A stretch of 48,103 nt of DNA from assembly GCA_016218965.1 (NCBI GenBank), contig JACRCP010000396.1, positions 1 through 48,103 on the forward strand, given 5' to 3'. Source of the DNA: Deltaproteobacteria bacterium. Its GTDB lineage: Bacteria > Myxococcota > SpSt-1050 > JACRCP01. Each line of letters begins with the position of its first letter. Positions within the stretch are counted from its first letter, which is position 1. Made by a program: the position numbers and the translations under genes. Below the pieces are notes generated by a model. The model did no database searches and was not told the DNA's origin. It was given only the letters and a program-made list of their open reading frames with translations. Positions 20,177-44,109 of the stretch are shown one piece after another.

Positions 20177-22060
20177 CTACTTGCAGCACTTCTCTATCAG
20201 GTCCGGCGGCTGGACGCCGTATTCGCAGGCGCAGCAGACGTCCTTGCACTCGGGCGGCGTGCAGCAATTGTCTATGATCGCCGGGTCCACGGTGCCGCAG
20301 TCCGGTTTCGGCGCACAGCACTTCTCGTTCACCTCGGGCGGCAGCACGCCGTAGTCGCACTCGCAGCAGACGTCTTCGCAGCTGACGCAGCACTCGGCGA
20401 ACTGCTCGGGCGTCACCGAACCGCAATCCGGCGGCTCCACTCCGTAGTCGAGCGTGATGCAGCATTGCGACGCCACGGTGCAGTCGACCGGTTCCTTGGG
20501 GCAGCATTCGTCTATCACAGCCGGATCGACCTTGTCGCAATCCGGGGGAGGGATGCCGTACTCGGGGGCGGCGCAGCACTGCTCGTAGACATCCGGGGGG
20601 ATCACGCCGTAGTCGCACTCGCAGCACACGTCGCCGCAGTTGATGCCGGCGTCCGGCGCGGGACCGGCGTCCTCGCCGATGACTCCGCCGTCCGGCGGCT
20701 CGACACCGTACTCCGGCTGGATGGCACAGCACTCTTCGTAAACGTCCGGCGGGATCACGCCGTATTCGCACTCGCAACAGACGTCCTTGCAGTTCGTTCC
20801 TCCGCCGTCCGGAGCGGGACCGGCGTCCTGTCCCACGGCGGCGTCCCCGGAAACGCCCCCGTCCTCGGCCGGGCCTCCCGAGTCCTCCACCACGGCACCC
20901 GCATCCCCGGAAGTGACCGCGACGTCGCACCCGCCGACTACCAGCGAAAACGCCGACGCAGCCGCGGCCATGTGCCGCGCCACGCGCCTAAGCGGCCGCT
21001 GGCGGACAAGCTCCGAGACCCTGTAGTAGCAGTAGGGGTCCTCGAAGACCGACGGTCCCATTGCCGCGGCCACGCATTTCGCGCCGCCCCGGCAGAGTTT
21101 TGCGTACCGGCAGGTCTTGCAGAATCCCGTGAGGTCGGCGGCCCGGAAGAGCCGGTTGTACGAAAATGCCGCCGGGTCGTTCCAGATGTCAGATAGCGCC
21201 CTCTCGCGGACGTTCCCTTCGACAAACGGGTCGCGATCGCGGTCCGAGAACGCCTGCATCGAGAGGCAGCCCTTGATGTTTCCGTTCGACTCGATCCCGA
21301 TCGCCTGGAGCCCTGCCTGGCACCCGCCCCAGCGCTGGGGTTTCCCGTCCCACGACATGGCCCGCAGGCGCGAGTCGTACGGCCCGTAGAAACCGATCGA
21401 ATCGCCAATGTGGACTCGAATCCCGCCCTTCGATTCGAGCCGGTAGAGGCGCGGGAGCAGATCAAGAAGGTCCTCGGGCTCGAGCACCCAGTCATCCCGA
21501 TCCTTCAAGTTCCCCATGGATTTGCCGAGCTGGACGCGCCACGACGCGGCGCCGAGCTTCTCGGCCATGCCGCAGGTCTCTTCGAGGTGCGCAAGGTTGA
21601 GCTTGTTGGCCGTGGTCATGATGGCCGTCGAGACGCCCGCGTCGGCAAGGAATGAGAGGGCGCGCACGGTCTTCGCGAACGTCCCCCTGCCGCGGATCTT
21701 CTCGTGCACCGCCTCGGGGCCATCGATGCTCACCGCGGCGTTGGCGAGCCCCGCGTCCTTCATTCGGCGTGCAAGCTCCGCCGTCATGGAGTTCCCATTG
21801 GTCACGATGTTGGCGATCATCCCGCGGTCGCGGATGGCTTTCGCCACGACCTCCCAGTCGGGCCGAAGTGTCGGCTCGCCGCCCGATAGCGTGATGAGCC
21901 TGCCCCCGAGCCTCGCGAGCGAGCCAACGACGCCAAGGCACTCGGCGGTGTCCATCTCGTCGGGCCGGGCCGTACCCGCCCGCGAGCCGCAGTGCCCGCA
22001 CCGCAGATCGCACGCCAGTGTGAACTCCCACACGCAGTTGACCGGCTTGAACTCAGGCAT
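20177..22060 (-). CDS. Radical SAM/SPASM-domain enzyme fused in frame to a signal-peptide-like hydrophobic segment and five tandem Cys-rich repeats
   Basis: ATG at 22060 with GGAGGG RBS (longer ORF to 22123). CDLRCGHC CxxxCxxC, SGGEPT, and a SPASM-like CKTCRYAKLCRGGAKC cluster. This is followed by RRVARHMAAAASAFSLVVGGCDVAV (signal/lipobox-like), then a Gly/Asp linker and repeats of C-x-DVCCEC-x-YGV-x-PPD-x3-CC. There is no stop between the domains in the sequence as given. Confidence 0.8.
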   Translation of the reverse strand: MPEFKPVNCVWEFTLACDLRCGHCGSRAGTARPDEMDTAECLGVVGSLARLGGRLITLSGGEPTLRPDWEVVAKAIRDRGMIANIVTNGNSMTAELARRMKDAGLANAAVSIDGPEAVHEKIRGRGTFAKTVRALSFLADAGVSTAIMTTANKLNLAHLEETCGMAEKLGAASWRVQLGKSMGNLKDRDDWVLEPEDLLDLLPRLYRLESKGGIRVHIGDSIGFYGPYDSRLRAMSWDGKPQRWGGCQAGLQAIGIESNGNIKGCLSMQAFSDRDRDPFVEGNVRERALSDIWNDPAAFSYNRLFRAADLTGFCKTCRYAKLCRGGAKCVAAAMGPSVFEDPYCYYRVSELVRQRPLRRVARHMAAAASAFSLVVGGCDVAVTSGDAGAVVEDSGGPAEDGGVSGDAAVGQDAGPAPDGGGTNCKDVCCECEYGVIPPDVYEECCAIQPEYGVEPPDGGVIGEDAGPAPDAGINCGDVCCECDYGVIPPDVYEQCCAAPEYGIPPPDCDKVDPAVIDECCPKEPVDCTVASQCCITLDYGVEPPDCGSVTPEQFAECCVSCEDVCCECDYGVLPPEVNEKCCAPKPDCGTVDPAIIDNCCTPPECKDVCCACEYGVQPPDLIEKCCK

Positions 22061-22232
22061 GACACCCTCCAGCGTTTGCTTTCGCGCCATTATACACTGA
22101 TGCCCCGAAAAACGGACAAACAACTTTCAAATCCGATGCCACGCGCAACATGCTGAAATGACTGCCCGTATTGGTCCCGGCACCGTTCAGAATTCCGACC
22201 GAAAGCGAATTTCCGGCGCCTATGGCCCGAGG

Positions 22233-33115: not shown

Positions 33116-36100
33116 ATGACAAGTCCGAGCGTGACTCACCGCCCTGCTGTTGTTCGGACGGTGTCGTCCGGCGCGCTGAAAGCGCGGGAACTCTTGAGCC
33201 TGGGGCAACGCCCCAGGTACACGGGGCCGAAACCCGGCGAAGCCCTGAAGGGGCGAAACGTTCGAGTCAGCGGTTGCGATCCGACGAGTCTCGCCCTTTC
33301 AGGGCTCGCATCGCGATCCCAACCCCCACCCGGGGCGCTTCCCCGGGCTGAAGAATCTCGCGCCTTCAGCGCTCAGCCTCACCGTCCTCGCAGAAGAACC
33401 GCGGCGGGCGAACCCAGGACATTGAGCGGCCTTTTCCTGGCGGCTGCTGTGCTCTCCGCCCTTGCGGGCTGCGGCGGTCACGCCGGGGCGGCCGACGCCA
33501 AACAGGCGGGTGCCGACGCGGGCGGCGCGGGCGCCGCCGAGGAGGTTGCGCCGTTGAAGGTAATCAAGTGGACCGGGAAGTTCTCCGACGGCTGGAAGGA
33601 ATTCGACAAGCTCGCAAACGAGCAGAAGCACGAGAAGGCCTCGGAGCTTGTCGAAAAGATGCTCGAATCGGCCAAGTCGTCGAAAGACTCCGAGGAGTGG
33701 GTCCGCTGCCTCATCAAGTGGACGACCCTCCGTGTCGCGCTCCACGGGTACGAAACCTCCGTGCGCTTCCTGCGCGAACAGCCGTGGCCTGAAGACCTTC
33801 TGGGAAGCACGGTCCTGAACCTGTACTACGCGCGGACGCTCGTGACGTACGCCCACAGCTACTCGTGGGAGATCAACAAGCGCGAGCGCGTCGAGACGAA
33901 GGGCGTCGTGGACCTCAAGGCGTGGACCATGGACCAGATCTTTGCCGAGGCCCAGCGCGCGTACGAGGAGGTCTGGAAACACAGGGAACAGCTCGGCGAC
34001 CTGCCGGCAAAACACCTCTCGGAATACCTTGAACCCAACACGTATCCCGAGGGAATCCGGCCGACCCTCCGCGACGCCGTTTCGTACCTTCGCGTCGAGA
34101 TCCTCGCCGACACGCAGGGCTGGCGCCCCGAGCAGTCAAACGAGGTCTTCAGGCTCGATCTCAAAAACCTCCTGTCGGACGCTCCGGCCGCGAAAGACGG
34201 CAAGGTGTTCGACCTCGCCGACCCCGGTGTCCACCCGCTGGAAAAGATCGCCGCGATCCTTGCCGACCTCGAGCAATGGCACGCAAAAAAGGCCCGGAAG
34301 GAAGCGGCGTTCGAGGCACGACGGGAACGGCTGGAGAGACTCCACGCGAGTTTCACCGAAGACCAGGACCGCGCCCGAATCAAGCACGATCTCGAAAAAC
34401 GTCTGGGTGGCGTTTCGGGAAAACCCTGGTGGTCGATGGGGATGGCGACGCTTTCGACCTTCGTGCAGGCCGAAGACGCCTCCGACGCGCTGATACGCGC
34501 GCGCAAGATCGCCATCGAAGGCCGCGAGGCGTTTCCCGACTCGGTCGGCGGAAAGCGCTGCAATCACGTCGTCAAATCGATCGAGGCGCCGGACTACTCG
34601 CTTTCGGGCATGTCAAGCGACGGACCGAAGAAGCGATCGATCGAGGTGACGCACAAGAACCTCGGGGCACTGCACTTCCGGGCATACGCCGTGGACATCG
34701 TGAGACAGATAGAAACCGCCGACGACTACCGCATTTACCCCGGCTGGAAGGCGCTCCAGAAGATGGTCGAGTCGGGACGCCCGGCACACACATGGTCCGT
34801 CGAGCTTCCCGCGACACCCGACTACAGGATGCACGAAACGTTCGTGACGCCGCCAATGACCAAGTCCGGCTTGTACGTCGTCATGGCCTCGGCGCGGAAG
34901 GACTACGCGCAGGACGACAACAAGATCCTCGGACTCGACGTGGTCGTGACGGACCTCGTGATGGTGACCAGGCAGGAGGGCGGCGAGGTCGAGGTCACGG
35001 TACTTGACGGCCCGGCGGGGAAGCCGGTCCCGGGTGCCGAGGTGACTCTCTACAAATACGACTGGCGGAACAAGCACAAGTCGGTCGATTCCGAGACGAC
35101 CGATGCAAAAGGCGTGGTTCGGTTCTCGCGGAAATCGCAGGACGGTTCGTACTTCCTATTTGCAAAAAAAGGCGTTGAGGTCGCGTACGACCCGAACTAC
35201 CTGTATTTCTACCGCCAGCAGCCCGCGCCCGACCAGCACGCGACCCTCATCTTCACCGACCGGAGCATCTACCGGCCGATGCAAAAGCTCTTTTGGAAGG
35301 CCCTCGTCTATCACGGAAGGTACGACAGGGCGGACTACAAGATCGCTACTAACACCTCGGTGACGATCTCGCTCGTGGACCCGAACCACCAGACCGTCGA
35401 GACAAAGACCGTGACGACCAACGCCTACGGCACGGCGTCGGGCGAGTTCACGATCCCGACCGGACGCATCCTGGGCCAGTGGCACCTGCAAAGCTCGCTC
35501 AACGGGACCGCCTACGTCCGCGTCGAAGAGTACAAGCGCCCGACGTTCGAGTCGAAGTTTCTGGACCCCGCAAGCGCCCTCCGCCTCAACAAGCCCGCGA
35601 CTCTAAAGGGCGAGGCCCGGTACTACTTTGGTCTGCCGGTGACCAACGGCGCGGTCAAGTGGCGCGTCACGCGCGAGCCGGTCTATCCGTGGTGGTGGGG
35701 TTGGTACTGGTGGGCCGAATCCCGCCCGGCGGCCGCGAAGATCCAGACCGTGGCGACCGGCACGGCCGCGCTGAAGGAGGACGGCACGTTCACGTTCACC
35801 TTCACCCCCGAAGCCGACGAGCGCGGCGCCGAGTCGAAGCACCTGACCTTCCGGTACGCCGTCACCGCCGACGTCACCGACGAGGGCGGCGAGACGCGGT
35901 CCGCGTCAAAATCCTTCAGGCTGGGCTTCGTCTCCGTCGAGGCCGCAGTGAGGATGGAAACCGGGTTCCTGATGGAAGGGCAGACGGGCGATCTCACGGT
36001 GCTTCGGACGAATCTCGACGGCGTTCCCAAGGCCGGCAAAGGCGCGTGGAAGCTTCTGGCGACGAGCGGCCCCAAAGAGGCCCTCACGCCGGCCGAACAA

Positions 36101-39100
36101 CCGTTCCCGACGCTTCCGGGAAAAGAAAAGAAAAAGGAGTTCGCGACACCGGGCGACTCGATCCGGCCCCGTTGGAATTTCTCGTACACGCCCGAGGCCG
36201 TGATGCGCGCGTGGGAGGACGGCGGCGTCAAGGGGAGCGGCGAGGTTTCGCACAACGACAAGGGCGAAGGCAAGGTTGCCATCCCCGCGCTCTCGGCGGG
36301 CGTCTATCGCCTCAAGTACGAGACACAGGACGAGTTCGGCGCCAAGTTCGAGATGTCAAAGGAGTTCGTCGTCGGCGGCCGCCGGGCGAACATCGCCCTC
36401 CCCTCGCTCCTGCTCGTCGAGGAATCGTCGGTCAAGGTCGGCGGCACGGCGCGGATTCTCGCGCTTTCGGGCCTGCGCGACCAGTACATGGTGCTCGACG
36501 TCTACCGTGAAGGGAAGCGCGTGGATCGGCGGCAGCTCGAATCGGGCCGGGACTCGACGCTCATAGAGATACCCGTGACCGAGAAAGACCGCGGCGGTTT
36601 CGGCGTGACGCTCTCGGTCCTCCGCGACCACCAGTTCATGCACTCGTCGCAGACGGTGTTCGTCCCGTGGGACGACAAGGAGTTGAAGGTCGAGTTCTCG
36701 ACGTTTAGGGACAAGCTCCGCCCCGGGCAGAAGGAGAAGTGGACGGTGAAGCTTTCCGGCCCAGAGGGAAAGGACACTGCAGTCGCGGCGGCCGAGGTTC
36801 TTTCGTACCTGTACGACCGATCGCTTGACGCCTTCGTCCCGCACAGTCCGCCGAGCCCGCTGTCCATCTGGCCCCACCGCGCCTCGGTCGTCTGGGCGCG
36901 TGCGAACCTCGGGACGGCACACCAGGAGTGGATCGAGAGCCGCGGGTTCAAGCCGCTCCCCGGTTGGCCCGACCTCCATCCGGACCGCCTGAAATTCTAC
37001 GAAGGCTACGGGATCGGCGGGCCCGGGAGGCGAAGGTACTACAAGGGCGGCGGCGCACCGGAAGGCGCGGCCATGCGCAAGTCGATGCCCATGAAGGCAA
37101 TGGCCCGGATGGATCGCGACGAGGCCGAAATGAAGGCCGAAGAGGCCAGGCCGCCCGCTGCGCCGGCCGCGCAGGCCCCGATGGAGGCCGCCGACAAGGC
37201 CGTGGCTACGTCGGAGACGAAACAAAAGGCCGGCGACGGGAGGGACCGCCGCGAACCCGAGGCGCCGGTGCAGATGCGCGCCGATTTTTCGGAGACCGCG
37301 TACTTTTTGCCGCACCTCATCACGGGCGCCGACGGCACGGCGTCAATCGAGTTCTCGGTACCCGATTCGGTCACCTCGTGGAACGTCTGGGTCCACGCGG
37401 TCACAAAGGACCTAAAATCCGGCTCGACGACAAAAGAGGCCAAAACCGTCAAAGACCTCATGGTCCGCCCGTACATCCCGCGCTTCCTGCGCGAGGGGGA
37501 CAAGGCCGAGATCAAGGTCGTCGTCAACAACGCCTCGGACAAGGAGATCAAGGGACATCTCGCATTCGACATCATCGACCCGTCTACAGAGAAGAGCGTG
37601 CTCGAGTCCTTCGGCCTGCGGCCAGAGGACACGAAGAAGCTCCCGTTCACCGTTCCGGCAGGCGGCGGAACAAACCTCGGTTTCTCGCTCGCGACACCTG
37701 CGAAGGTCGGCCTGATAGCATTCAAGGTCACCGCCGTGTCGGGCGATGTGTCCGACGGCGAGCTTCGGCCTATTCCGGTGCTCCCCGGGCGGATGCACCT
37801 TGCGCAGTCCCGGTTCGTGACGCTTCGGGGCAAGGGCCAGAGGGTCATGAAGTTCGCCGATCTTGAAAAGGCCGACGACTCGACGCTGATTAACGAACAG
37901 ATGGTCGTGACGCTCGACGCGCAACTCTTCTACTCGGTGCTCTCGGCACTCCCCTACCTCGTGAACTACCCGTACGAGTGCACCGAGCAGACGCTCAACC
38001 GCTTCGTCTCGACCGGGATACTCTCTTCGATGTACGCGAAGTACCCCGCCATCGAAAAGATGGCAAAGGAGTTCTCGACCCGGAAGACCGAGTTCGAGCA
38101 GTGGGACCAGCCTGATCCCAACAGGAAGATGGCGCTCGAGGAGACGCCGTGGCTCCGGATGGCCAAGGGCGGGACGCACGACTACGACGATCTCGTAAAC
38201 GTCCTCGACCCGCGGATCACCCGCGCCCAGCGCGACGCGTCGCTCGCGAAACTGCGCAAGGCGCAGACCAGCTCCGGCGGCTTCCCGTGGTTCCCCGGCG
38301 GCCCGCCGTCGCCGTGGATGACCGTCTACATGCTCTACGGCTTCTCGAAGGCCCTCGAGTTCGGCGTGGACGTCCCCAAGGACATGGTCCAGCGCGCGTG
38401 GTCGTACGTGCACCGGTACTACATTGACGAGATCGTACGCGACATGATCCGCCACGACTGCTGCTGGGAGACCGTCACGTTCATCAACTACGTGCTCTCG
38501 AACTATCCGGATTCGAGCTGGACCGGAGGCGTCTTCTCGGACGACGAGCGCCAGAAGATGCTGCTGTTCTCGTTTGGCAAGTGGAAGAAGCACTCGCCGT
38601 ATCTCAAGGGGTATCTCGCGCTTACGCTCAAGAGGATGAAGCGCGAGAAGGACGCGCGCCTCGTGTGGGAGTCGGTCCTCGATTCGGCAAAGGAGAAGGA
38701 GGACCAGGGGACGTTCTGGGCGCCAGAGGACCGCGGCTGGCTCTGGTACAACGACACGATCGAAACACATGCGTTTGCGATCAGGACGACCATGGAGCTG
38801 ATGCCCGAGGAGCCGAAGCTCGACGGGATGGTGCTCTGGATCTTCCTTAACAAGAAACTCAACCACTGGAAATCCACGCGCGCCACGGCCGAGGTGGTCT
38901 ATTCGCTTGCGCACTACCTCAAGAAGACCGACCAGCTCGGCGTGCGCGAGGACGCGGCGGTGACGTTAAACGGCGAGACGACGCGGTTCGTTTTTGAGCC
39001 CGACAAGTACACCGGGAAGAAGAACCAGATCGTCGTACCGGGCGAGAAAGTTGACCCGAAGCGCACATCGACGATCACGGTCGAAAAGGACAGCAAAGGC

Positions 39101-39607
39101 TATCTCTTCGCCTCGGCGACGTGGCACTTCTCGACCGAGAAGCTGCCCGAGGAAGACCGCGGCGACTACCTTGCCGTCTCGCGACAGTTCTTCAGGAGGG
39201 TCAACACCGGCCGCGAGTTCGTCTTGCAGCCGCTCAAGGACGGGACAGCGCTTTCTCCCGGCGACGAGGTCGAGGTCCACATATCGCTCCGCTCAAAGCA
39301 CCAGATGGAGTACGTTCACCTGCGCGACCCGAGGGGCGCCGGTTTCGAGCCCGAAGGCGCCGTGAGCAGGCACAAGTGGGAGCTGGGCATCTACTGGTAC
39401 GAGGAGTACCGCGACTCCGGGACCAACTTCTTCTTCGAAAGACTCCCGCAGGGCGAGTACACGTTCAAGTACCGGATAAGGGCCGCGACGGCAGGCACCT
39501 TCAAGGTCGCGCCGGCGACCGTGCAACCGATGTACGCGCCGGAGTTCAACGCGTACAGCGCGGGAGCGGTGGTGAAGATCAGTTCGTCGGAGGAAAAGGC
39601 GAAGTAG
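33116..39607 (+). CDS. Bacterial alpha-2-macroglobulin family protein (YfhM/ECAM-like) with an intact thioester motif
   Basis: ~2160-aa ORF. The thioester signature YPYECTEQ (CxEQ) lies at ~37960-37985 within LVNYPYECTEQTLNRFV. MG-domain-like repeats precede it. A lipoprotein-type signal (LSGLFLAAAVLSALAGC) lies ~102 codons inside the ORF at the TTG at 33422. The ATG at 33116 has a strong GAGGAGG RBS but encodes a 100-aa Arg/Pro-rich extension, so the true start is uncertain. Confidence 0.85.
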   Translation: MTSPSVTHRPAVVRTVSSGALKARELLSLGQRPRYTGPKPGEALKGRNVRVSGCDPTSLALSGLASRSQPPPGALPRAEESRAFSAQPHRPRRRTAAGEPRTLSGLFLAAAVLSALAGCGGHAGAADAKQAGADAGGAGAAEEVAPLKVIKWTGKFSDGWKEFDKLANEQKHEKASELVEKMLESAKSSKDSEEWVRCLIKWTTLRVALHGYETSVRFLREQPWPEDLLGSTVLNLYYARTLVTYAHSYSWEINKRERVETKGVVDLKAWTMDQIFAEAQRAYEEVWKHREQLGDLPAKHLSEYLEPNTYPEGIRPTLRDAVSYLRVEILADTQGWRPEQSNEVFRLDLKNLLSDAPAAKDGKVFDLADPGVHPLEKIAAILADLEQWHAKKARKEAAFEARRERLERLHASFTEDQDRARIKHDLEKRLGGVSGKPWWSMGMATLSTFVQAEDASDALIRARKIAIEGREAFPDSVGGKRCNHVVKSIEAPDYSLSGMSSDGPKKRSIEVTHKNLGALHFRAYAVDIVRQIETADDYRIYPGWKALQKMVESGRPAHTWSVELPATPDYRMHETFVTPPMTKSGLYVVMASARKDYAQDDNKILGLDVVVTDLVMVTRQEGGEVEVTVLDGPAGKPVPGAEVTLYKYDWRNKHKSVDSETTDAKGVVRFSRKSQDGSYFLFAKKGVEVAYDPNYLYFYRQQPAPDQHATLIFTDRSIYRPMQKLFWKALVYHGRYDRADYKIATNTSVTISLVDPNHQTVETKTVTTNAYGTASGEFTIPTGRILGQWHLQSSLNGTAYVRVEEYKRPTFESKFLDPASALRLNKPATLKGEARYYFGLPVTNGAVKWRVTREPVYPWWWGWYWWAESRPAAAKIQTVATGTAALKEDGTFTFTFTPEADERGAESKHLTFRYAVTADVTDEGGETRSASKSFRLGFVSVEAAVRMETGFLMEGQTGDLTVLRTNLDGVPKAGKGAWKLLATSGPKEALTPAEQPFPTLPGKEKKKEFATPGDSIRPRWNFSYTPEAVMRAWEDGGVKGSGEVSHNDKGEGKVAIPALSAGVYRLKYETQDEFGAKFEMSKEFVVGGRRANIALPSLLLVEESSVKVGGTARILALSGLRDQYMVLDVYREGKRVDRRQLESGRDSTLIEIPVTEKDRGGFGVTLSVLRDHQFMHSSQTVFVPWDDKELKVEFSTFRDKLRPGQKEKWTVKLSGPEGKDTAVAAAEVLSYLYDRSLDAFVPHSPPSPLSIWPHRASVVWARANLGTAHQEWIESRGFKPLPGWPDLHPDRLKFYEGYGIGGPGRRRYYKGGGAPEGAAMRKSMPMKAMARMDRDEAEMKAEEARPPAAPAAQAPMEAADKAVATSETKQKAGDGRDRREPEAPVQMRADFSETAYFLPHLITGADGTASIEFSVPDSVTSWNVWVHAVTKDLKSGSTTKEAKTVKDLMVRPYIPRFLREGDKAEIKVVVNNASDKEIKGHLAFDIIDPSTEKSVLESFGLRPEDTKKLPFTVPAGGGTNLGFSLATPAKVGLIAFKVTAVSGDVSDGELRPIPVLPGRMHLAQSRFVTLRGKGQRVMKFADLEKADDSTLINEQMVVTLDAQLFYSVLSALPYLVNYPYECTEQTLNRFVSTGILSSMYAKYPAIEKMAKEFSTRKTEFEQWDQPDPNRKMALEETPWLRMAKGGTHDYDDLVNVLDPRITRAQRDASLAKLRKAQTSSGGFPWFPGGPPSPWMTVYMLYGFSKALEFGVDVPKDMVQRAWSYVHRYYIDEIVRDMIRHDCCWETVTFINYVLSNYPDSSWTGGVFSDDERQKMLLFSFGKWKKHSPYLKGYLALTLKRMKREKDARLVWESVLDSAKEKEDQGTFWAPEDRGWLWYNDTIETHAFAIRTTMELMPEEPKLDGMVLWIFLNKKLNHWKSTRATAEVVYSLAHYLKKTDQLGVREDAAVTLNGETTRFVFEPDKYTGKKNQIVVPGEKVDPKRTSTITVEKDSKGYLFASATWHFSTEKLPEEDRGDYLAVSRQFFRRVNTGREFVLQPLKDGTALSPGDEVEVHISLRSKHQMEYVHLRDPRGAGFEPEGAVSRHKWELGIYWYEEYRDSGTNFFFERLPQGEYTFKYRIRAATAGTFKVAPATVQPMYAPEFNAYSAGAVVKISSSEEKAK

Positions 39608-39666
39608 TCCCGAGTCTTGAGCCCGTGCCCCGGTTGACCGCCGCGCCGCGCCGTCCGGGGTGCCAC

Positions 39667-39685
39667 GGACAACCGCAGGTTGTCC
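39667..39685 (+). terminator. GC-rich hairpin (GGACAACC-GCAG-GGTTGTCC) 60 nt downstream of the A2M stop, with no U-tract
   Basis: Perfect 8-bp inverted repeat seen in sequence. Terminator function is inferred only. Confidence 0.25.
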
Positions 39686-39799
39686 GTGTGCGACGCGCGA
39701 CGTCGTCGCGTGGCGCGAAACATCCCCGAGCCTGTCGAAGGGCTAAGGTTCCCGCCAATGCGGGCTGCCGGGTAGATGGATCGAGGATTGGAGGGATCC

Positions 39800-40252
39800 A
39801 TGGCACTGATGCTCTCGCGTGCAAAGAGGACCATCGGCGCGTTCATCTTCTCGCTTCTCATGTACACCTTCCCGTCACTCGGCGGCGGCTGCAACGTGGC
39901 CGAAGAAAAGGACGGCGGGGCGGAGGTGTTGCCCGCGGAAGATGCCGGTTCGTCAGACGCCGGCCCGTTGGACTACGGTTCTTCGGAAGCGGGTTACGGT
40001 CCGCCTTCCTGCACGACCGACGACGACTGCCGATCTCCCGAAGACCAGACTGCAGTCGCGTACTGCGATCAAGCGCGAGGCTGGTGCGAATACATCTTCT
40101 CGTGCGATTCGGATTCGGAGTGCCAAGAACACTTTGGAGAGTCCTTTTTCTGCGACCCCAAAAAAAAGCAATGCGTTTCCGGGCAAACAGACTTTGACGG
40201 CGGCTTCGACCCCGACGCGGACGCCACCCCCGATGCGGGCACCGCCGATTAG
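39800..40252 (+). CDS. Cys-rich secreted or lipoprotein-like protein, paralog A of the shared 45-aa leader family
   Basis: GGAGGG RBS. MALMLSRAKRTIGAFIFSLLMYTFPSLGGGCNVAEEKDGGAE is almost identical to the N-terminus of the 41072 gene. The mature part has CTTDDDC...C...C units (8 Cys). Confidence 0.7.
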   Translation: MALMLSRAKRTIGAFIFSLLMYTFPSLGGGCNVAEEKDGGAEVLPAEDAGSSDAGPLDYGSSEAGYGPPSCTTDDDCRSPEDQTAVAYCDQARGWCEYIFSCDSDSECQEHFGESFFCDPKKKQCVSGQTDFDGGFDPDADATPDAGTAD

Positions 40253-40297
40253 ACCGACGTGCGATGTCCTGAAGTTCGGCGGTTTGACGGCGCGCGC

Positions 40298-40630
40298 CTA
40301 CGCCCTTGTCAACCGTTCCAGCAGGACATCACCCAGGTTCCTCCTACTATCGAGAACGGCCGACACGTAGACCGTGCCGCCCACAACCTCGTATATGATT
40401 CTCCATGGCGCGACGATCAACTCCCGGAAACCTGTCAGCCCGACCAGCTCCAATTCCGGCACCCTGCGTCCACGGAACGGAGACATGTCGAGCGTCCGAA
40501 ATCTGGCCTCGATCGTGTCCATGATTCGCGCGGCTGTTTCGCGCGATTCCCGCTCGATGTAACGGCCTATCGACTCGAGGTCCTCCCTCGCCAAAGGAGA
40601 AGTGCTGACCTCGAATCTACGACCGCTCAT
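40298..40630 (-). CDS. RelE/ParE-family toxin
   Basis: 110 aa with the ParE/RelE fold signature (PFRGRRVPELELVGLTGFRELIV...YEVV). Overlaps the upstream antitoxin gene by 14 nt. Confidence 0.75.
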   Translation of the reverse strand: MSGRRFEVSTSPLAREDLESIGRYIERESRETAARIMDTIEARFRTLDMSPFRGRRVPELELVGLTGFRELIVAPWRIIYEVVGGTVYVSAVLDSRRNLGDVLLERLTRA

Positions 40631-40907
40631 CTCTCGCCTTCTTCATCGCGGCCCGCACGCGGGCAAATACCTGGTCCGTGGTTTCACCGCGGCCTTCCCG
40701 AAATTCCCTGTCGCTTTGCGCGATGATCTTGAGCATCGCCAGCGTTTCCTGCCAGCGGTCCCAGGTCGCGACGTCCATCAAGACGGCCTTGGCCTCGCCG
40801 TTCTGCGTGATGACCATCTGGCCGCCGGTCTCGACCACCTCTCGCACAACGTCCGCCGTGTGGTTCTTGAGATACGTGATGGGTTTGATCGCTTTAGCAA
40901 GCCGCAT
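40617..40907 (-). CDS. Phd/YefM-family antitoxin
   Basis: 96 aa with the YefM-like N-terminal region (KPITYLKNHTADVVREVVETGGQMVITQNGEAKAVLM). Confidence 0.75.
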   Translation of the reverse strand: MRLAKAIKPITYLKNHTADVVREVVETGGQMVITQNGEAKAVLMDVATWDRWQETLAMLKIIAQSDREFREGRGETTDQVFARVRAAMKKARDERS

Positions 40908-40976
40908 GTTTCACCTCCTGACATGTCCGAATTTAGCACCTTTTAAGGACCGCAACAACAGGATCGTTTTTGGCCT

Positions 40977-41021
40977 GCGGCAGCAAGCTGCCGCGAACGC
41001 AAAGCGCAAGCATGCTTGCGC
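40977..41021. repeat. Double-palindrome element (GCGGCAGCAAGCTGCCGC-N9-GCGCAAGCATGCTTGCGC), second copy of the element at 4434-4475
   Basis: Two perfect 18-bp palindromes. The first is identical to 4434-4451 and the second differs by 1 nt from 4458-4475. It lies in the divergent region between the Phd/YefM start and the Cys-rich gene, 17 nt upstream of a TATAAT (41039-41044). Confidence 0.55.
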
Positions 41022-41071
41022 ACCCCACCCGACCGGCGTATAATGTGCCTGCACCGGGCAAGGAGGGAAAC

Positions 41072-41818
41072 ATGGCGCTCATCATCACGCGGGCCAAAAG
41101 GACCATCGGCGCGTTCATCTTCTCGCTTCTGCTGTACATCTTCCCGTCACTTGGCGGCGGGTGCAACGTGGCCGACGAGAAGGACGGCGGGGCCGAGATG
41201 TCGGACGTGTCCCCCGGCGGGGACGACGCTGTTTTGGCGGATGGCAGCACCTCGCCCGACGGCGGCTCGGAGGACTTTGGAAACACCTGTGGCGCCTACG
41301 GACCTCCCCCCTGCGAGTCCGACGAGGACTGCGCCGCGTACGGCGACGGCTACTACTGCGACAAGGATCATCAGATCAACATGTGCGGCGAGACGACCAC
41401 GTGGCCAACCTGCAAGGGAGGCGTTGTCACGAGCGACGCCGGCCCGCAGGACGCAGGCTACGAGGACTACGGGAACACCTGCGCCGCGTACGGCCCGCGG
41501 CCGTGCGACACCGACCAGGATTGCCGCGACTGGAACGACGCCGGCAACTGGGTCTGCGACAAGGACCATGTCGCGGGCTACTGCAACGGAGAACCGATGA
41601 CGTGGCCGACCTGCATCGAGACCGCCGATGCGGACGCAGGCTACGCCGACTTCGGAACGCCCTGCGCCGCGTACGGTCCCCAGCCGGCGCCCTGCGAGAC
41701 CGATGCTGAATGCGTTGCGCAGAACGGCGCGGGGTGGTACTGCGACAAAGATTTCGTCATTGACGTCTGCGGAACGCTGACGACCCAGCCGACGTGCGTT
41801 CCCGGCGGGGACAAATAA
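41072..41818 (+). CDS. Cys-rich secreted or lipoprotein-like protein with three ~55-aa six-Cys repeats, paralog B of the shared leader family
   Basis: AAGGAGGG RBS. The leader MALIITRAKRTIGAFIFSLLLYIFPSLGGGCNVADEKDGGAE, then three repeats of G-N/T-T/P-C-x-AYGP-x-PC-x-[ST]D-x-[DE]C...CDKD-x6-C-x8-C. Confidence 0.75.
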   Translation: MALIITRAKRTIGAFIFSLLLYIFPSLGGGCNVADEKDGGAEMSDVSPGGDDAVLADGSTSPDGGSEDFGNTCGAYGPPPCESDEDCAAYGDGYYCDKDHQINMCGETTTWPTCKGGVVTSDAGPQDAGYEDYGNTCAAYGPRPCDTDQDCRDWNDAGNWVCDKDHVAGYCNGEPMTWPTCIETADADAGYADFGTPCAAYGPQPAPCETDAECVAQNGAGWYCDKDFVIDVCGTLTTQPTCVPGGDK

Positions 41819-41837
41819 ACCGGAACAGGCAAAGAAC

Positions 41838-41904
41838 GATGCTGGATGCTAGATGCTAGATGGCGCAGATCGAAATCCAGCATCCAACGTCCGGCATCCA
41901 GCAT
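41838..41904 (+). promoter_or_regulatory. Tandem GATGCT(G/A)GATGCTAGATG repeats paired with a downstream inverted copy (ATCCAGCATCC...GGCATCCAGCATCC), forming an extended stem-loop spanning the annotated rSAM start
   Basis: Direct and inverted repeats seen in sequence. A regulatory role is inferred. Confidence 0.35.
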
Positions 41905-42992
41905 CCGCTGTGCCGCGCACCGCATCTGACGCATTCCGACACTTTGCCGCGAAGCACCCGCTCGGGTACCTCTACCTCGAGATCACGCGCCGATGTAACC
42001 TCAAGTGCGTCTACTGCGGAAGCTCCTGCGGCCCGAAGACGCTCCCCGAGGAGATGCCGGTCGCTCGCTGGGTCGCGGTGCTCGAACAGATTGCTGCCGA
42101 CTTCGATTCGAAGAAGATCATGCTCGCCATCACGGGCGGCGAGCCGCTTCTCAAGCCCGACGTGTTCGACCTCTTCGGCGCGGCAAAAAGGCTGGGTTTT
42201 CCATTTGGGATGGTCACAAACGCGACGCTCATCGACGACAAGATGGCCGAACGACTCGCCGGATGCGGGATTGGGTCAATCTCGCTCTCGTTCGACGCCC
42301 CGCCGGAGGTGAACGACTCGCTCCGCGGGAAGGGGATCTCGGAGCGGGTTGCGCGCGCCGCGAAAGCACTTCAGGATGCCGGTTACCGCGGCAAGCTCGA
42401 GATCATGACGACGTTTACGAAACCCGTCACGCCGCACTTGGACGCCCTTCGCAAGTACATCTCCCAACTCCGGGTCGGCCTCTGGCGGATTGTCCCCGTT
42501 ATGCCCATAGGTCAGGCGGCGACGCGGCCCGACCTCCTACCGGACTGCGAGGACTTCAAGACCCTTCTCAAGTTCGTCGAGACCGCGCGCAAAGACGGCT
42601 TGCGCCCGGCGCCCGAGCTTGGAGAGGAGGGGTTTTTGGGCGACCCCTACGAGACCGAAAAGTCCGTCCGCCCGTACAAGTTCCTCTGCCGCGCGGGTCT
42701 CACCATCGCGGGCATCTCGTACGACGGGAAGATCGGCGCCTGCCCCGAGCTGACTCCCGCGTTCACACAGGGCCACGTGGACCGGGACCGTTTCAAGGAC
42801 GTGTGGGAGACGAGATACGAAGTCTTCCGCAAACGGGACTGGACGCGGGTCGGCCAATGCCACAGTTGCAGGTCGTTCGACCGTTGCCTCGGCGGCAGCA
42901 TGCACCTCTACGAAAAACCCGGCGACGCCACCTGCCGGTGCCTTTTTGAAATGATCGGAGGAGACCGGACGACCGCGGGCCGCACGTCGTAG
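41853..42992 (+). CDS. Radical SAM/SPASM-domain enzyme (anSME/peptide-maturase-like) downstream of the Cys-rich repeat gene
   Basis: RRCNLKCVYC CxxxCxxC, TGGEPLL, and a C-terminal SPASM-like CHSCRSFDRC plus further Cys. The start could instead be the GTG at 41910 just after the stem-loop. Confidence 0.8.
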   Translation: MLDGADRNPASNVRHPASAVPRTASDAFRHFAAKHPLGYLYLEITRRCNLKCVYCGSSCGPKTLPEEMPVARWVAVLEQIAADFDSKKIMLAITGGEPLLKPDVFDLFGAAKRLGFPFGMVTNATLIDDKMAERLAGCGIGSISLSFDAPPEVNDSLRGKGISERVARAAKALQDAGYRGKLEIMTTFTKPVTPHLDALRKYISQLRVGLWRIVPVMPIGQAATRPDLLPDCEDFKTLLKFVETARKDGLRPAPELGEEGFLGDPYETEKSVRPYKFLCRAGLTIAGISYDGKIGACPELTPAFTQGHVDRDRFKDVWETRYEVFRKRDWTRVGQCHSCRSFDRCLGGSMHLYEKPGDATCRCLFEMIGGDRTTAGRTS

Positions 42993-43104
42993 CGCCTTAC
43001 AGGATGTGTTTCTCTATGTGGCCGTATCCCGGCGTCCGTGAACGCCGATCCAACTGGCCATCACGAACCGCCGTGCCTTCGGGAACTTCTGCGTGAGCGC
43101 CATG

Positions 43105-43488
43105 TCAGTCGGAGTTCATTGGCACGGCGGTGTCCGGCAACTTGCGCACGCGGTGCCTGCCGGGTTCGACGACGATGAATGATCTCAGGAGATCGTCCTG
43201 TGAGTGATGGCTGAAAACAGCAGTCAATTCGTCGTGAACGGCTTCCAGCGTACCGGGCGACACCCGCAGGTAGATCACTCCCCCTCTCCGGCCCCCCAAA
43301 AAAACCAGCGAACCGAAGTCCCTGTCTCGCGTTACCACAACCCGGCCTTCGGCGGCGCCCTTCTTAAGGATGGCCTCGTCAGCGGCAAGATGCACTTGCA
43401 GCCGCGCCACCGTCACAACGTCGTGCCCGAGACTCAGAAGATGCCGAACAGTGGCCGCATAGACGTCCTGATCGACAAGAAGTCTCAT
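43105..43488 (-). CDS. DUF5615-type (Mut7-C/PIN-like) putative toxin
   Basis: MRLLVDQDV...VVTRDRDFGSL pattern typical of the PIN-like partner of DUF433 proteins. Confidence 0.6.
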   Translation of the reverse strand: MRLLVDQDVYAATVRHLLSLGHDVVTVARLQVHLAADEAILKKGAAEGRVVVTRDRDFGSLVFLGGRRGGVIYLRVSPGTLEAVHDELTAVFSHHSQDDLLRSFIVVEPGRHRVRKLPDTAVPMNSD

Positions 43489-43724
43489 GCCGGGGGCGCC
43501 GGGGTGGAAACGTGCAGCTCTTCGGCGTCAAGAACGTCGATCGCGTATTGCACGCACGCGCGGATGTCATCCTCGGAGATATCAGGATAGTAGTCGCGGA
43601 CGATCCGCTCAAAAGGGACGCTCTCCCTGACCAGCTCCAGCACGTCGTGAACGGGAATTCGCGTTCCCGCAACGCAGGGCTTTCCGAAATGTACTTTCGG
43701 GTCGACTTCGATTCTCTCCTTCAT
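43485..43724 (-). CDS. DUF433-family small protein (antitoxin-like partner)
   Basis: Internal ATG at 43724 with GGGAGG RBS. Conserved GKPCVAGTRIPV motif. 4-nt overlap with the DUF5615 gene. Confidence 0.65.
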   Translation of the reverse strand: MKERIEVDPKVHFGKPCVAGTRIPVHDVLELVRESVPFERIVRDYYPDISEDDIRACVQYAIDVLDAEELHVSTPAPPA

Positions 43725-44109
43725 CGCGCCTACCTCCCGGTCTACGACCAGCACCATTATGCATTCCGCCGGCGGGATCGTCAATGGACCAAGCACAACG
43801 GAAGGTTAGCCGTTTCGATGAAGTGGGCCCCGGCCGCGGCGTTCGACCCTCGCGGGCTGCTTGTCGCAGCCGGGGTGCGGACTCTTCGGCCCGGCGTCTG
43901 CCGGCCCGGGAGAAGGGCCAGGACGGCCTCGGCTCGCCCACGGCGCGATAAGATCCCAGGGTAGCCGCTGCAACACGCGACCCCCGTGGGGTCGTCCGTC
44001 ACCGGCCATTCGGAATGTGCAGAACGTTCCTTCCTTCCCGTTCGTCGTCCGACGCTTCTGCCGGAATGCCCCACGGGGGCATCGTATTGAAGCCCGGGGT
44101 TGCCGCAGG

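Follow-up and report, generated by a model that had tools for sequence, protein, structure and literature searches.

A putative lipoprotein with Tyr-Gly-Pro repeats is paired with a radical SAM/SPASM enzyme across Myxococcota-type genomes, and a dispersed heptamer palindrome probably entered the pair in one lineage

We analyzed a complete contig of 48,103 bp (64% G+C), referred to here as the window, from a metagenome-assembled genome (MAG) labeled 'Deltaproteobacteria bacterium'. On its forward strand, a gene for a putative lipoprotein of 248 residues (HY897_24660; 41072-41818) is followed by a gene for a radical S-adenosylmethionine (SAM) enzyme with a SPASM domain (360 residues from GTG 41910; 41910-42992), and the intergenic spacer between them, most likely 91 nucleotides (nt) long (41819-41909), contains a degenerate palindrome of heptamer repeats (41838-41906). 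The original prediction, made from the sequence of the window, described a cassette of a Cys-rich three-repeat protein followed by a radical SAM/SPASM enzyme, and suggested that the stem-loop between the genes might couple or attenuate expression of the enzyme relative to its putative substrate. The first claim is confirmed, in that the modules, the Pfam Radical_SAM and SPASM domains, and the CNLKCVYC motif are all present. The second is not supported: our results support a model in which the two genes form a conserved pair and the stem-loop is probably a repeat insertion rather than part of its design.

The lipoprotein ATG is preceded, at a distance of 5 nt, by a Shine-Dalgarno-like AAGGAGG read from the sequence (41060-41066, forward strand). 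The first codons (41072-41164) specify a putative signal peptide or anchor, with a basic RAKR stretch, a hydrophobic core, and a lipobox-like LGGGC whose cysteine, Cys31, is putatively lipidated. This cysteine is conserved in at least 90% of 35 lipoprotein homologues, and the lipobox is atypical in that positions -3 and -2 are both Gly. The protein has 19 cysteines in all, and those other than Cys31 lie in three modules of six (amino acids 70-117, 134-182, and 195-244), delimited by alignment, sequence, and an AlphaFold2 model. On the forward strand they occupy 41279-41422, 41471-41617, and 41654-41803, with a Tyr-Gly-Pro (YGP) motif at 41297-41305, 41489-41497, and 41672-41680, respectively. 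The model shows an N-terminal helix and three compact modules, each with one short helix and four short strands and with a core predicted local distance difference test score (pLDDT) above 90, joined by disordered linkers. Each YGP sits at the N-terminal edge of its module, where the disordered linker meets the confident fold. With Foldseek, the model found no fold match in the PDB (best E = 1.8). The Cys-rich form makes up a small family: at E ≤ 1e-3, a set of 1.84 billion proteins yields 164 representatives. The records include a 100% identical protein, HY897_24660, annotated 'hypothetical protein', and exact-sequence look-ups returned no record for the enzyme, from either of its possible starts, or for the lipoprotein.

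The open reading frame (ORF) of the enzyme, 41853-42992, matches Radical_SAM (PF04055) with 83.5 bits, against a cutoff of 29.5, and SPASM (PF13186) with 32.2 bits, against a cutoff of 21.5. The CxxxCxxC cluster motif, CNLKCVYC (41994-42017, forward strand), has all three cysteines invariant in an alignment of 34 homologues, and a further invariant fourth cysteine follows 4 residues on. The SPASM cysteine region (42687-42941, forward strand), which includes the segment CHSCRSFDRC, reads C-x12-G-x4-C, CxxCx5C, and a final C, with C279, C297, C336, C339, C345, and C363 invariant; the fourth cysteine of the canonical CxxCx5Cx3C of the 7-Cys motif, at the Cx3C position, is absent family-wide. No domains other than these two were detected, and the roughly 16 residues that precede the core from GTG 41910 leave an N-terminus too short for a RiPP recognition element (RRE) or PqqD-like domain (RiPP, a peptide made on ribosomes and modified after translation). 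The best NCBIfam match is TIGR04133 'rSAM_w_lipo', with 259.5 bits against a cutoff of 425, and the next family scores 112 bits. The nearest solved relatives are the peptide- or protein-modifying SPASM enzymes SkfB, CteB, PqqE, anSME, and SuiB. At least 370 homologues were found at E ≤ 1e-20, and those with names come almost entirely from Myxococcota MAGs.

The lipoprotein gene and the radical SAM gene are a conserved pair across Myxococcota-type genomes. We compared 68 genomic loci of the enzyme family (48-58% identity) together with the two closest metagenomic relatives, L081 and L082. Directly upstream of the radical SAM gene ends a same-strand ORF bearing YG[PVAI] in 61 of 71 loci, with two or more motifs in 54, and a profile built from the window lipoprotein finds a related ORF at this place and on this strand in about 51 loci. 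When all neighboring ORFs were compared with one another, the lipoprotein was the sole conserved neighbor, the next cluster being found in 6 loci, and no protease, transporter or exporter, or cofactor-pathway gene was conserved nearby. The co-conservation that was proposed as a check on the original prediction thus holds. The number and order of partner genes vary. Tandem arrays of three to five small one-module lipoprotein genes lie beside a single radical SAM gene in L045 (4232-5781), L036 (253-2313), and L026 (7453-10082), and L012 likewise has a tandem array of small one-module lipoproteins; in L026 and L058 the order is reversed, with the enzyme gene upstream of the lipoprotein genes.

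What all partners share is not cysteine but a repeated YYGPxP(V/C)D motif. Every partner at the other loci begins with a basic stretch, a hydrophobic run, and [GAS]C, and beyond this the consensus is (D/E)(E/D)P(V/A)(V/A/T)(Y/L)-Y-G-P-(P/Q)-P-(V/C)-D. The YG motif has a density of 1.80 per 100 residues in the partners versus 0.030 in the other ORFs of the same loci. Cys-rich partners carry one to six modules of the form YYGPxPCxxDxxCxxxxGxGWYCDxxNxxxDxCGxxxxWPxC, Cys-free partners have (V/A/L)YYGPQPVD five to nine times, set in acidic linkers, and some combine Cys-rich modules with YYGPQPVD linker repeats. At least a dozen partners have no cysteine in their mature part (for example, those of L005, L002, L011, L013, L016-L018, L023, L024, and L052). 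In the window lipoprotein, the motif forms the N-terminal edge of each six-Cys module. The emphasis that the original prediction placed on cysteine as the substrate feature is accordingly weakened, since many partners have none beyond the lipobox.

This distribution bears directly on whether the cysteines might themselves be the target. Sactipeptide and ranthipeptide maturases form sulfur-to-carbon thioether cross-links, and QhpD acts on QhpC; a comparable enzyme here would introduce such thioethers within each six-Cys module. The window partner has 18 module cysteines with conserved acidic residues between them (PCxxDxxC), the thioether-forming SkfB and CteB types are among the nearest solved relatives of the enzyme, and the missing SPASM cysteine could, in our interpretation, leave an iron site open for a substrate cysteine. 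However, in at least 12 loci an enzyme of the same family (48-58% identical) stands next to a partner that is Cys-free when mature, the Y-G-P columns are the only ones invariant in all three repeats when the 35 homologues of the window lipoprotein are aligned, and six cysteines per module in a confident compact fold would fit three structural disulfides formed after export. Because many partners lack cysteine, thioethers cannot be the family-wide reaction. We therefore consider a cysteine-directed enzyme unlikely, while thioethers are possible for the Cys-rich forms.

How the stem-loop relates to the pair depends first on where the enzyme begins. Its ORF opens at ATG 41853, directly after an in-frame TAG, and would encode 379 residues; GTG 41910 lies in the same frame, 4 nt beyond the stem. 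The 19 codons in between (41853-41909, forward strand) have a third-position G+C content (GC3) of 0.37, compared with 0.82 for the radical SAM gene and 0.85 for the lipoprotein gene, and the lowest 19-codon window inside either gene does not fall below 0.63. Homologues cover about 88-92% of the 379-residue ORF, and the first 20 or so residues are unconserved in every one of them. In P0001, the closest homologue (90% identity), the first residues are LNTRQAFEHFA, and they align with VPRTASDAFRHFA from GTG 41910. From the unconserved 5' codons, the equivalent start of P0001, and the drop in GC3, the native start is probably GTG 41910, with the extension from ATG 41853 not translated. In that case the spacer measures 91 nt, as alignment with L081, L082, and L085 and its G+C content also indicate, and the hairpin is wholly intergenic. 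The original prediction had given a gap of 35 nt, which presumes ATG 41853, and it had also named GTG 41910, just past the structure, as an alternative; it is this alternative that the homologues and GC3 favor.

The extended inverted structure that had been described in the spacer is real and very stable. A left array of (GATGCTR)3.5 at 41838-41863 faces a right array of (ATCCRRC)5 at 41873-41906, and the pairing arms, 41838-41862 and 41881-41905, are 25 nt long and 80% complementary, as read from folding and an inverted-repeat search. For 41815-41925 the minimum free energy (MFE) is -43.2 kcal/mol (z = -4.1; 0 of 200 shuffles as stable). The hairpin is the strongest short-range inverted repeat of the contig, and its 19-mer is unique in the window (0.00 expected by chance). 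No T-run follows the stem, after which comes CGCTGTGCCGCG, so the hairpin is not a canonical Rho-independent terminator; a terminator scan did not list it, and Rfam covariance models gave no match in 40900-42100 at E up to 10.

The corresponding junctions of the closest relatives are built differently. In L081, whose enzyme is 90% identical, the lipoprotein stop codon overlaps a TTG start of the radical SAM gene (aTTGa), with GGAG just upstream and no spacer. In L082 (75% identical) and L085 the spacers are 38 and 46 nt, respectively. GATGCT units are absent from all three junctions, and their folding is like that of shuffled sequence (z = 0.0 for L081, -0.5 for L082, and -0.9 for L085, versus -3.9 for the window). 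From the stop codon to the conserved AFxxF segment, no alignment of the four junctions is possible.

In some RiPP operons, hairpins that lie between the genes for precursor and modification set ratios, and a dedicated intercistronic attenuator or processing site that sets the ratio of substrate to maturase was the idea behind the original prediction. The stability of the structure speaks for it, as do its position exactly between the genes, with both candidate starts in the stem or at its foot, and the lack of any promoter-like site in the spacer (a sigma-70 scan of 39500-43300 found no site at all, a scan that is uninformative for this phylum). Yet none of the three closest relatives has the hairpin, and in the nearest of them the genes overlap; the stem has no T-run after it; the window copy is degenerate; and the same palindrome recurs in at least 120 unrelated contigs beside unrelated genes. 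A dedicated control element is thus improbable. The stem-loop does not appear to belong to the conserved design of the cassette and is probably a decayed copy of a dispersed palindrome that was inserted in this lineage.

That dispersed palindrome was found by scanning metagenome contigs for GATGCTGGATGC-N15-45-GCATCCAGCATC. At least 120 contigs carry the core, whereas by a rough, uncomputed estimate chance would give well below one for 24 fixed bases. We read 82 copies on 80 contigs (L086-L165) in detail. The copies are almost perfect palindromes, in which mirrored tandem heptamers (GATGCTR, GATGTTA, GATACTG) flank a short variable loop and variant units are mirrored on both arms; their median length is 72 nt and their median MFE -47 kcal/mol. 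Compared with these, the window copy, with its unequal and 80%-matched arms, looks like an old, decaying member. The host contigs range from 41 to 70% G+C. On contigs below 58% G+C, 54 of 61 copies are free of any spanning ORF of at least 100 residues; 40 of the 61 have a stop codon no more than 40 nt away, and 9 are flanked by convergent genes. Several copies lie 10-20 nt ahead of a Shine-Dalgarno sequence and ATG, and two soil contigs carry two copies each. In the main soil group, flanking genes have their closest counterparts in Blastocatellia (an encoded oxoprolinase is 80-82% identical to proteins named from that class), and one host contig of 43% G+C carries a large ORF that resembles a SusC/RagA-type TonB receptor, Bacteroidota-like by eye alone.

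Orthologous palindrome loci differ by whole units. Between L087 (4040-4200) and L159 (570-760), one arm has lost 15 nt, and the loop of one copy (GAGAAT) is the exact reverse complement of that of the other (ATTCTC), pointing to an inversion of the loop mediated by the palindrome. A different heptamer hairpin, (GTTTCGA)n with mirrored (TCGAAAC)n, lies just 5' of the lipoprotein gene of a Myxococcota cassette (L007, 5214-5262). An assembly artefact was ruled out because the hairpin lies inside many independent contigs with unique flanks. Readings of the heptamer as a CsrA-type GGA decoy or as a restriction site (GGATG/GCATC) were considered and set aside.

Like repetitive extragenic palindromic (REP) and REPIN elements and heptanucleotide variable-number tandem repeats (VNTRs), this palindrome is extragenic and usually lies just past stop codons, and its unit number varies among orthologous loci. 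It differs from them in its build, tandem heptamers mirrored around a loop, with both loop and arm length variable, and in that its core occurs in contigs of 41-70% G+C, Blastocatellia-like and in one case Bacteroidota-like by eye. Rfam gave no match at the palindromes of 12 related contigs, and a BLAST search of the hairpin against plasmids found none. Among viral contigs, the hairpin pattern and two permuted controls each gave 0 matches, which provides no measure of enrichment and no sign of phage carriage. In the literature searched the palindrome is undescribed; an exact-sequence search returned only a repeat deletion in Burkholderia pseudomallei, in which some isolates have lost an intergenic (CTGGATG)8 array (PMC4313173). 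Possibly, the mirrored (GATGCTR)n palindrome is an element not yet described, one that spreads between phyla or recurs in them. Being unannotated in Rfam and in the literature searched, the family may merit a study of its own.

A second radical SAM/SPASM protein of the window offers a parallel in fused form. On the reverse strand, 20177-22123 encodes a radical SAM/SPASM protein fused to a Cys-rich C-terminus, as read from Pfam, NCBIfam, and its repeats. Its best NCBIfam matches, TIGR03913 and TIGR04103, are both under cutoff. Past the SPASM domain comes RRVARHMAAAASAFSLVVGGC, a basic and hydrophobic stretch with a lipobox-like end (SLVVGGC), and the C-terminal region beyond is rich in cysteine (CC-rich) and carries seven (E/D)YG(V/I)xPP(D/E) repeats. 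The ORF may be a fusion of enzyme and substrate, or it may comprise two genes in one frame, the second starting internally at MAAAASAF. The original prediction had seen the cassette as the split form of this architecture, a parallel that holds and extends to the YG motif: because the fused enzyme carries seven YG repeats, a target motif of the YG-x-x-P-x-D type is likely common to both forms, split and fused.

On balance, we favor, with somewhat better than even confidence, a model in which the cassette is a two-gene unit encoding a lipoprotein precursor and a cytoplasmic radical SAM/SPASM enzyme that modifies it, with the hairpin as a repeat insertion rather than a conserved control element. 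In this model, the enzyme would bind the unfolded precursor in the cytoplasm and modify it at or beside each Tyr-Gly-Pro motif, needing no leader peptide or RRE, after which the precursor would be exported, lipidated, and disulfide-bonded. The chemistry, as an unproven best guess, would be a cross-link or oxidation initiated by hydrogen abstraction and centered on the Tyr or Gly of the motif. The palindrome would have replaced an ancestral, translationally coupled overlap of stop and start codons with a structured 91-nt spacer. Since both candidate starts lie in or next to the stem, it is a reasonable, though unproven, expectation that the insertion, as a side effect, lowers translation of the enzyme or uncouples it from that of the lipoprotein. 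The hairpin may also stabilize the 3' end of transcripts that contain the lipoprotein gene only.

Several observations weigh against this model. The link between enzyme and lipoprotein is one of adjacency (synteny) alone, about 10 of the 71 loci have no adjacent partner, and L083, which encodes a close homologue of the lipoprotein, has no adjoining radical SAM gene. The enzyme is cytoplasmic and its partner exported, so that modification would have to precede export. No Shine-Dalgarno sequence is visible at either ATG 41853 or GTG 41910. As for the insertion, the hairpin is present in a single copy in the 48-kb contig, where its repeat unit occurs nowhere else, and no such hairpin was found in 918 kb of other Myxococcota loci of the family. 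Finally, the YGVxPPD of the fused protein is out of register with YGPxPVD, and its enzyme belongs to another subfamily, with TIGR03913 as best match; the fused parallel is therefore supportive but not conclusive.

The reading that the enzyme instead makes a small-molecule cofactor or matures some other protein, with the lipoprotein as an unmodified linked partner such as a carrier or receptor, is the least probable we considered: although the second-tier family matches of the enzyme include cofactor enzymes (mycofactocin, heme b synthase, NirJ, and PqqE), the enzyme lacks an RRE domain, and its partner is exported while it stays in the cytoplasm, this reading sits poorly with the strict adjacency of the lipoprotein as the only conserved neighbor, with the lack of conserved transporter, protease, and cofactor-pathway genes, with a single conserved partner feature that is a short repeated motif in flexible regions, as is typical of modification sites, and with the natural fusion of a radical SAM/SPASM enzyme to YG repeats in the same contig.

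A broader reading goes beyond the two-gene model, and we hold it more tentatively, as a possibility somewhat short of an even chance. It would make the enzyme a member of an undescribed Myxococcota class of SPASM enzymes that act independently of leader and RRE, in split and fused forms, and install a new modification at every Tyr-Gly-Pro of repeat lipoproteins exported by Sec and Lol; separately, it would have the (GATGCTR)n palindrome be a cross-phylum element.

The surroundings of the cassette hold further features. Upstream, on the forward strand, lies a gene for a bacterial alpha-2-macroglobulin of 2163 residues (33116-39607), followed by a paralogue of the lipoprotein (HY897_24645; 150 residues; 39800-40252, forward strand), identified as an ORF and by sequence comparison. 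It sits 1.3 kb upstream of the main lipoprotein gene, is near-identical to that lipoprotein over the first 40 or so residues, and has one GYGPPSC motif and 8 further cysteines. Pfam and NCBIfam gave no match for the lipoprotein or this paralogue, for five partner proteins, or for the fused protein's C-terminal region. The cassette is flanked on both sides by toxin-antitoxin pairs, both assigned from Pfam and on the reverse strand: ParE/Phd (40298-40907), which separates the two lipoprotein paralogues, and DUF5615 (PIN-like)/DUF433 (43105-43796). In L083, a DUF6036 gene follows the orthologous lipoprotein gene where the radical SAM gene would be. The neighborhood looks like a hotspot of small insertions. 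A second palindrome, GCGGCAGCAAGCTGCCGC, occurs three times in the contig (4386-4403, 4434-4451, and 40977-40994), against 0.07 expected; one copy lies 78 nt 5' of the lipoprotein ATG, in the stretch from which the lipoprotein gene and the Phd antitoxin gene diverge. This palindrome may be an element of the REP type in this genome.

If the enzyme does modify the lipoprotein, the cassette would represent a widespread protein-maturation system without a characterized member, with at least 370 enzyme homologues, mostly in Myxococcota, and its substrate, in place of a secreted peptide, would be a lipoprotein of the surface or periplasm. Because the motif is short, repeated, and easily mutated, the chemistry is directly testable, and the Cys-free and fused variants are natural, ready-made controls. 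The locus also carries a caution, in that a striking structure between functionally linked genes can be a recent repeat insertion and not a regulator.

Among known systems, the nearest in gene content is that of TIGR04133 and its companion TIGR04134 ('radical SAM-associated putative lipoprotein', lipo_with_rSAM), both classed as 'hypothetical equivalog' in NCBIfam, in which a radical SAM/SPASM enzyme is likewise encoded beside a putative lipoprotein. The window enzyme, however, scores below the TIGR04133 cutoff, and neither the window lipoprotein nor five partner lipoproteins match TIGR04134 at E up to 10, so the cassette is a relative of this pair and not a member. The only TIGR04134 match found is a weak one (19 bits, E 0.0011) in the MG3 region of the alpha-2-macroglobulin (amino acids 624-676), where it overlaps a Pfam bMG3 match. 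Literature searches on TIGR04133/4 and on SPASM enzymes with a lipobox or lipoprotein found no description of the cassette.

The RiPP maturases of the radical SAM/SPASM type (SkfB, CteB, PapB, PqqE, MftC, and the three-residue cyclophane synthases) have the same catalytic domain architecture and modify repeated short motifs at several sites. They differ in that the substrate here would be a 248-residue protein with a lipoprotein signal in place of a leader, and in that no RRE or PqqD-like domain and no conserved protease or exporter accompanies it; the cassette falls outside the classical definition of a RiPP precursor and its maturase. Tyr-Gly-Pro is formally compatible with the aromatic-x-x motifs on which cyclophane synthases act (PMC11499958, PMC11851443), and we take this analogy as a working guess. 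Bufferins provide a precedent for modified precursors that carry an export signal: their Cys-containing precursors have Sec signal peptides in place of a classical leader and are modified by MNIO enzymes (PMC12452194). There, however, the enzyme is an MNIO/DUF692 protein rather than a radical SAM enzyme, and both chemistry and motif differ.

By analogy, the cassette appears to resemble more closely than classical RiPP systems the anaerobic sulfatase-maturating enzymes (anSME; AtsB/ChuR type), SPASM radical SAM enzymes that modify a whole protein at (C/S)-x-P-x-R before Sec export. In both cases the target would be a whole protein without a leader, recognized at a short motif in which Pro stands two residues after the target (+2), and anSME, which is among the nearest solved relatives, aligns with the window enzyme over its full length (50 bits, a similarity general to the superfamily). 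The differences are that the motif here is Y-G-P-x-P, with no Cys or Ser at the equivalent position, and that the partner is a repeat lipoprotein, not a sulfatase. A SPASM enzyme encoded beside a likely protein substrate is thus a known arrangement; what appears to be new here, judging from sequence comparison, is the type of partner and its candidate target motif.

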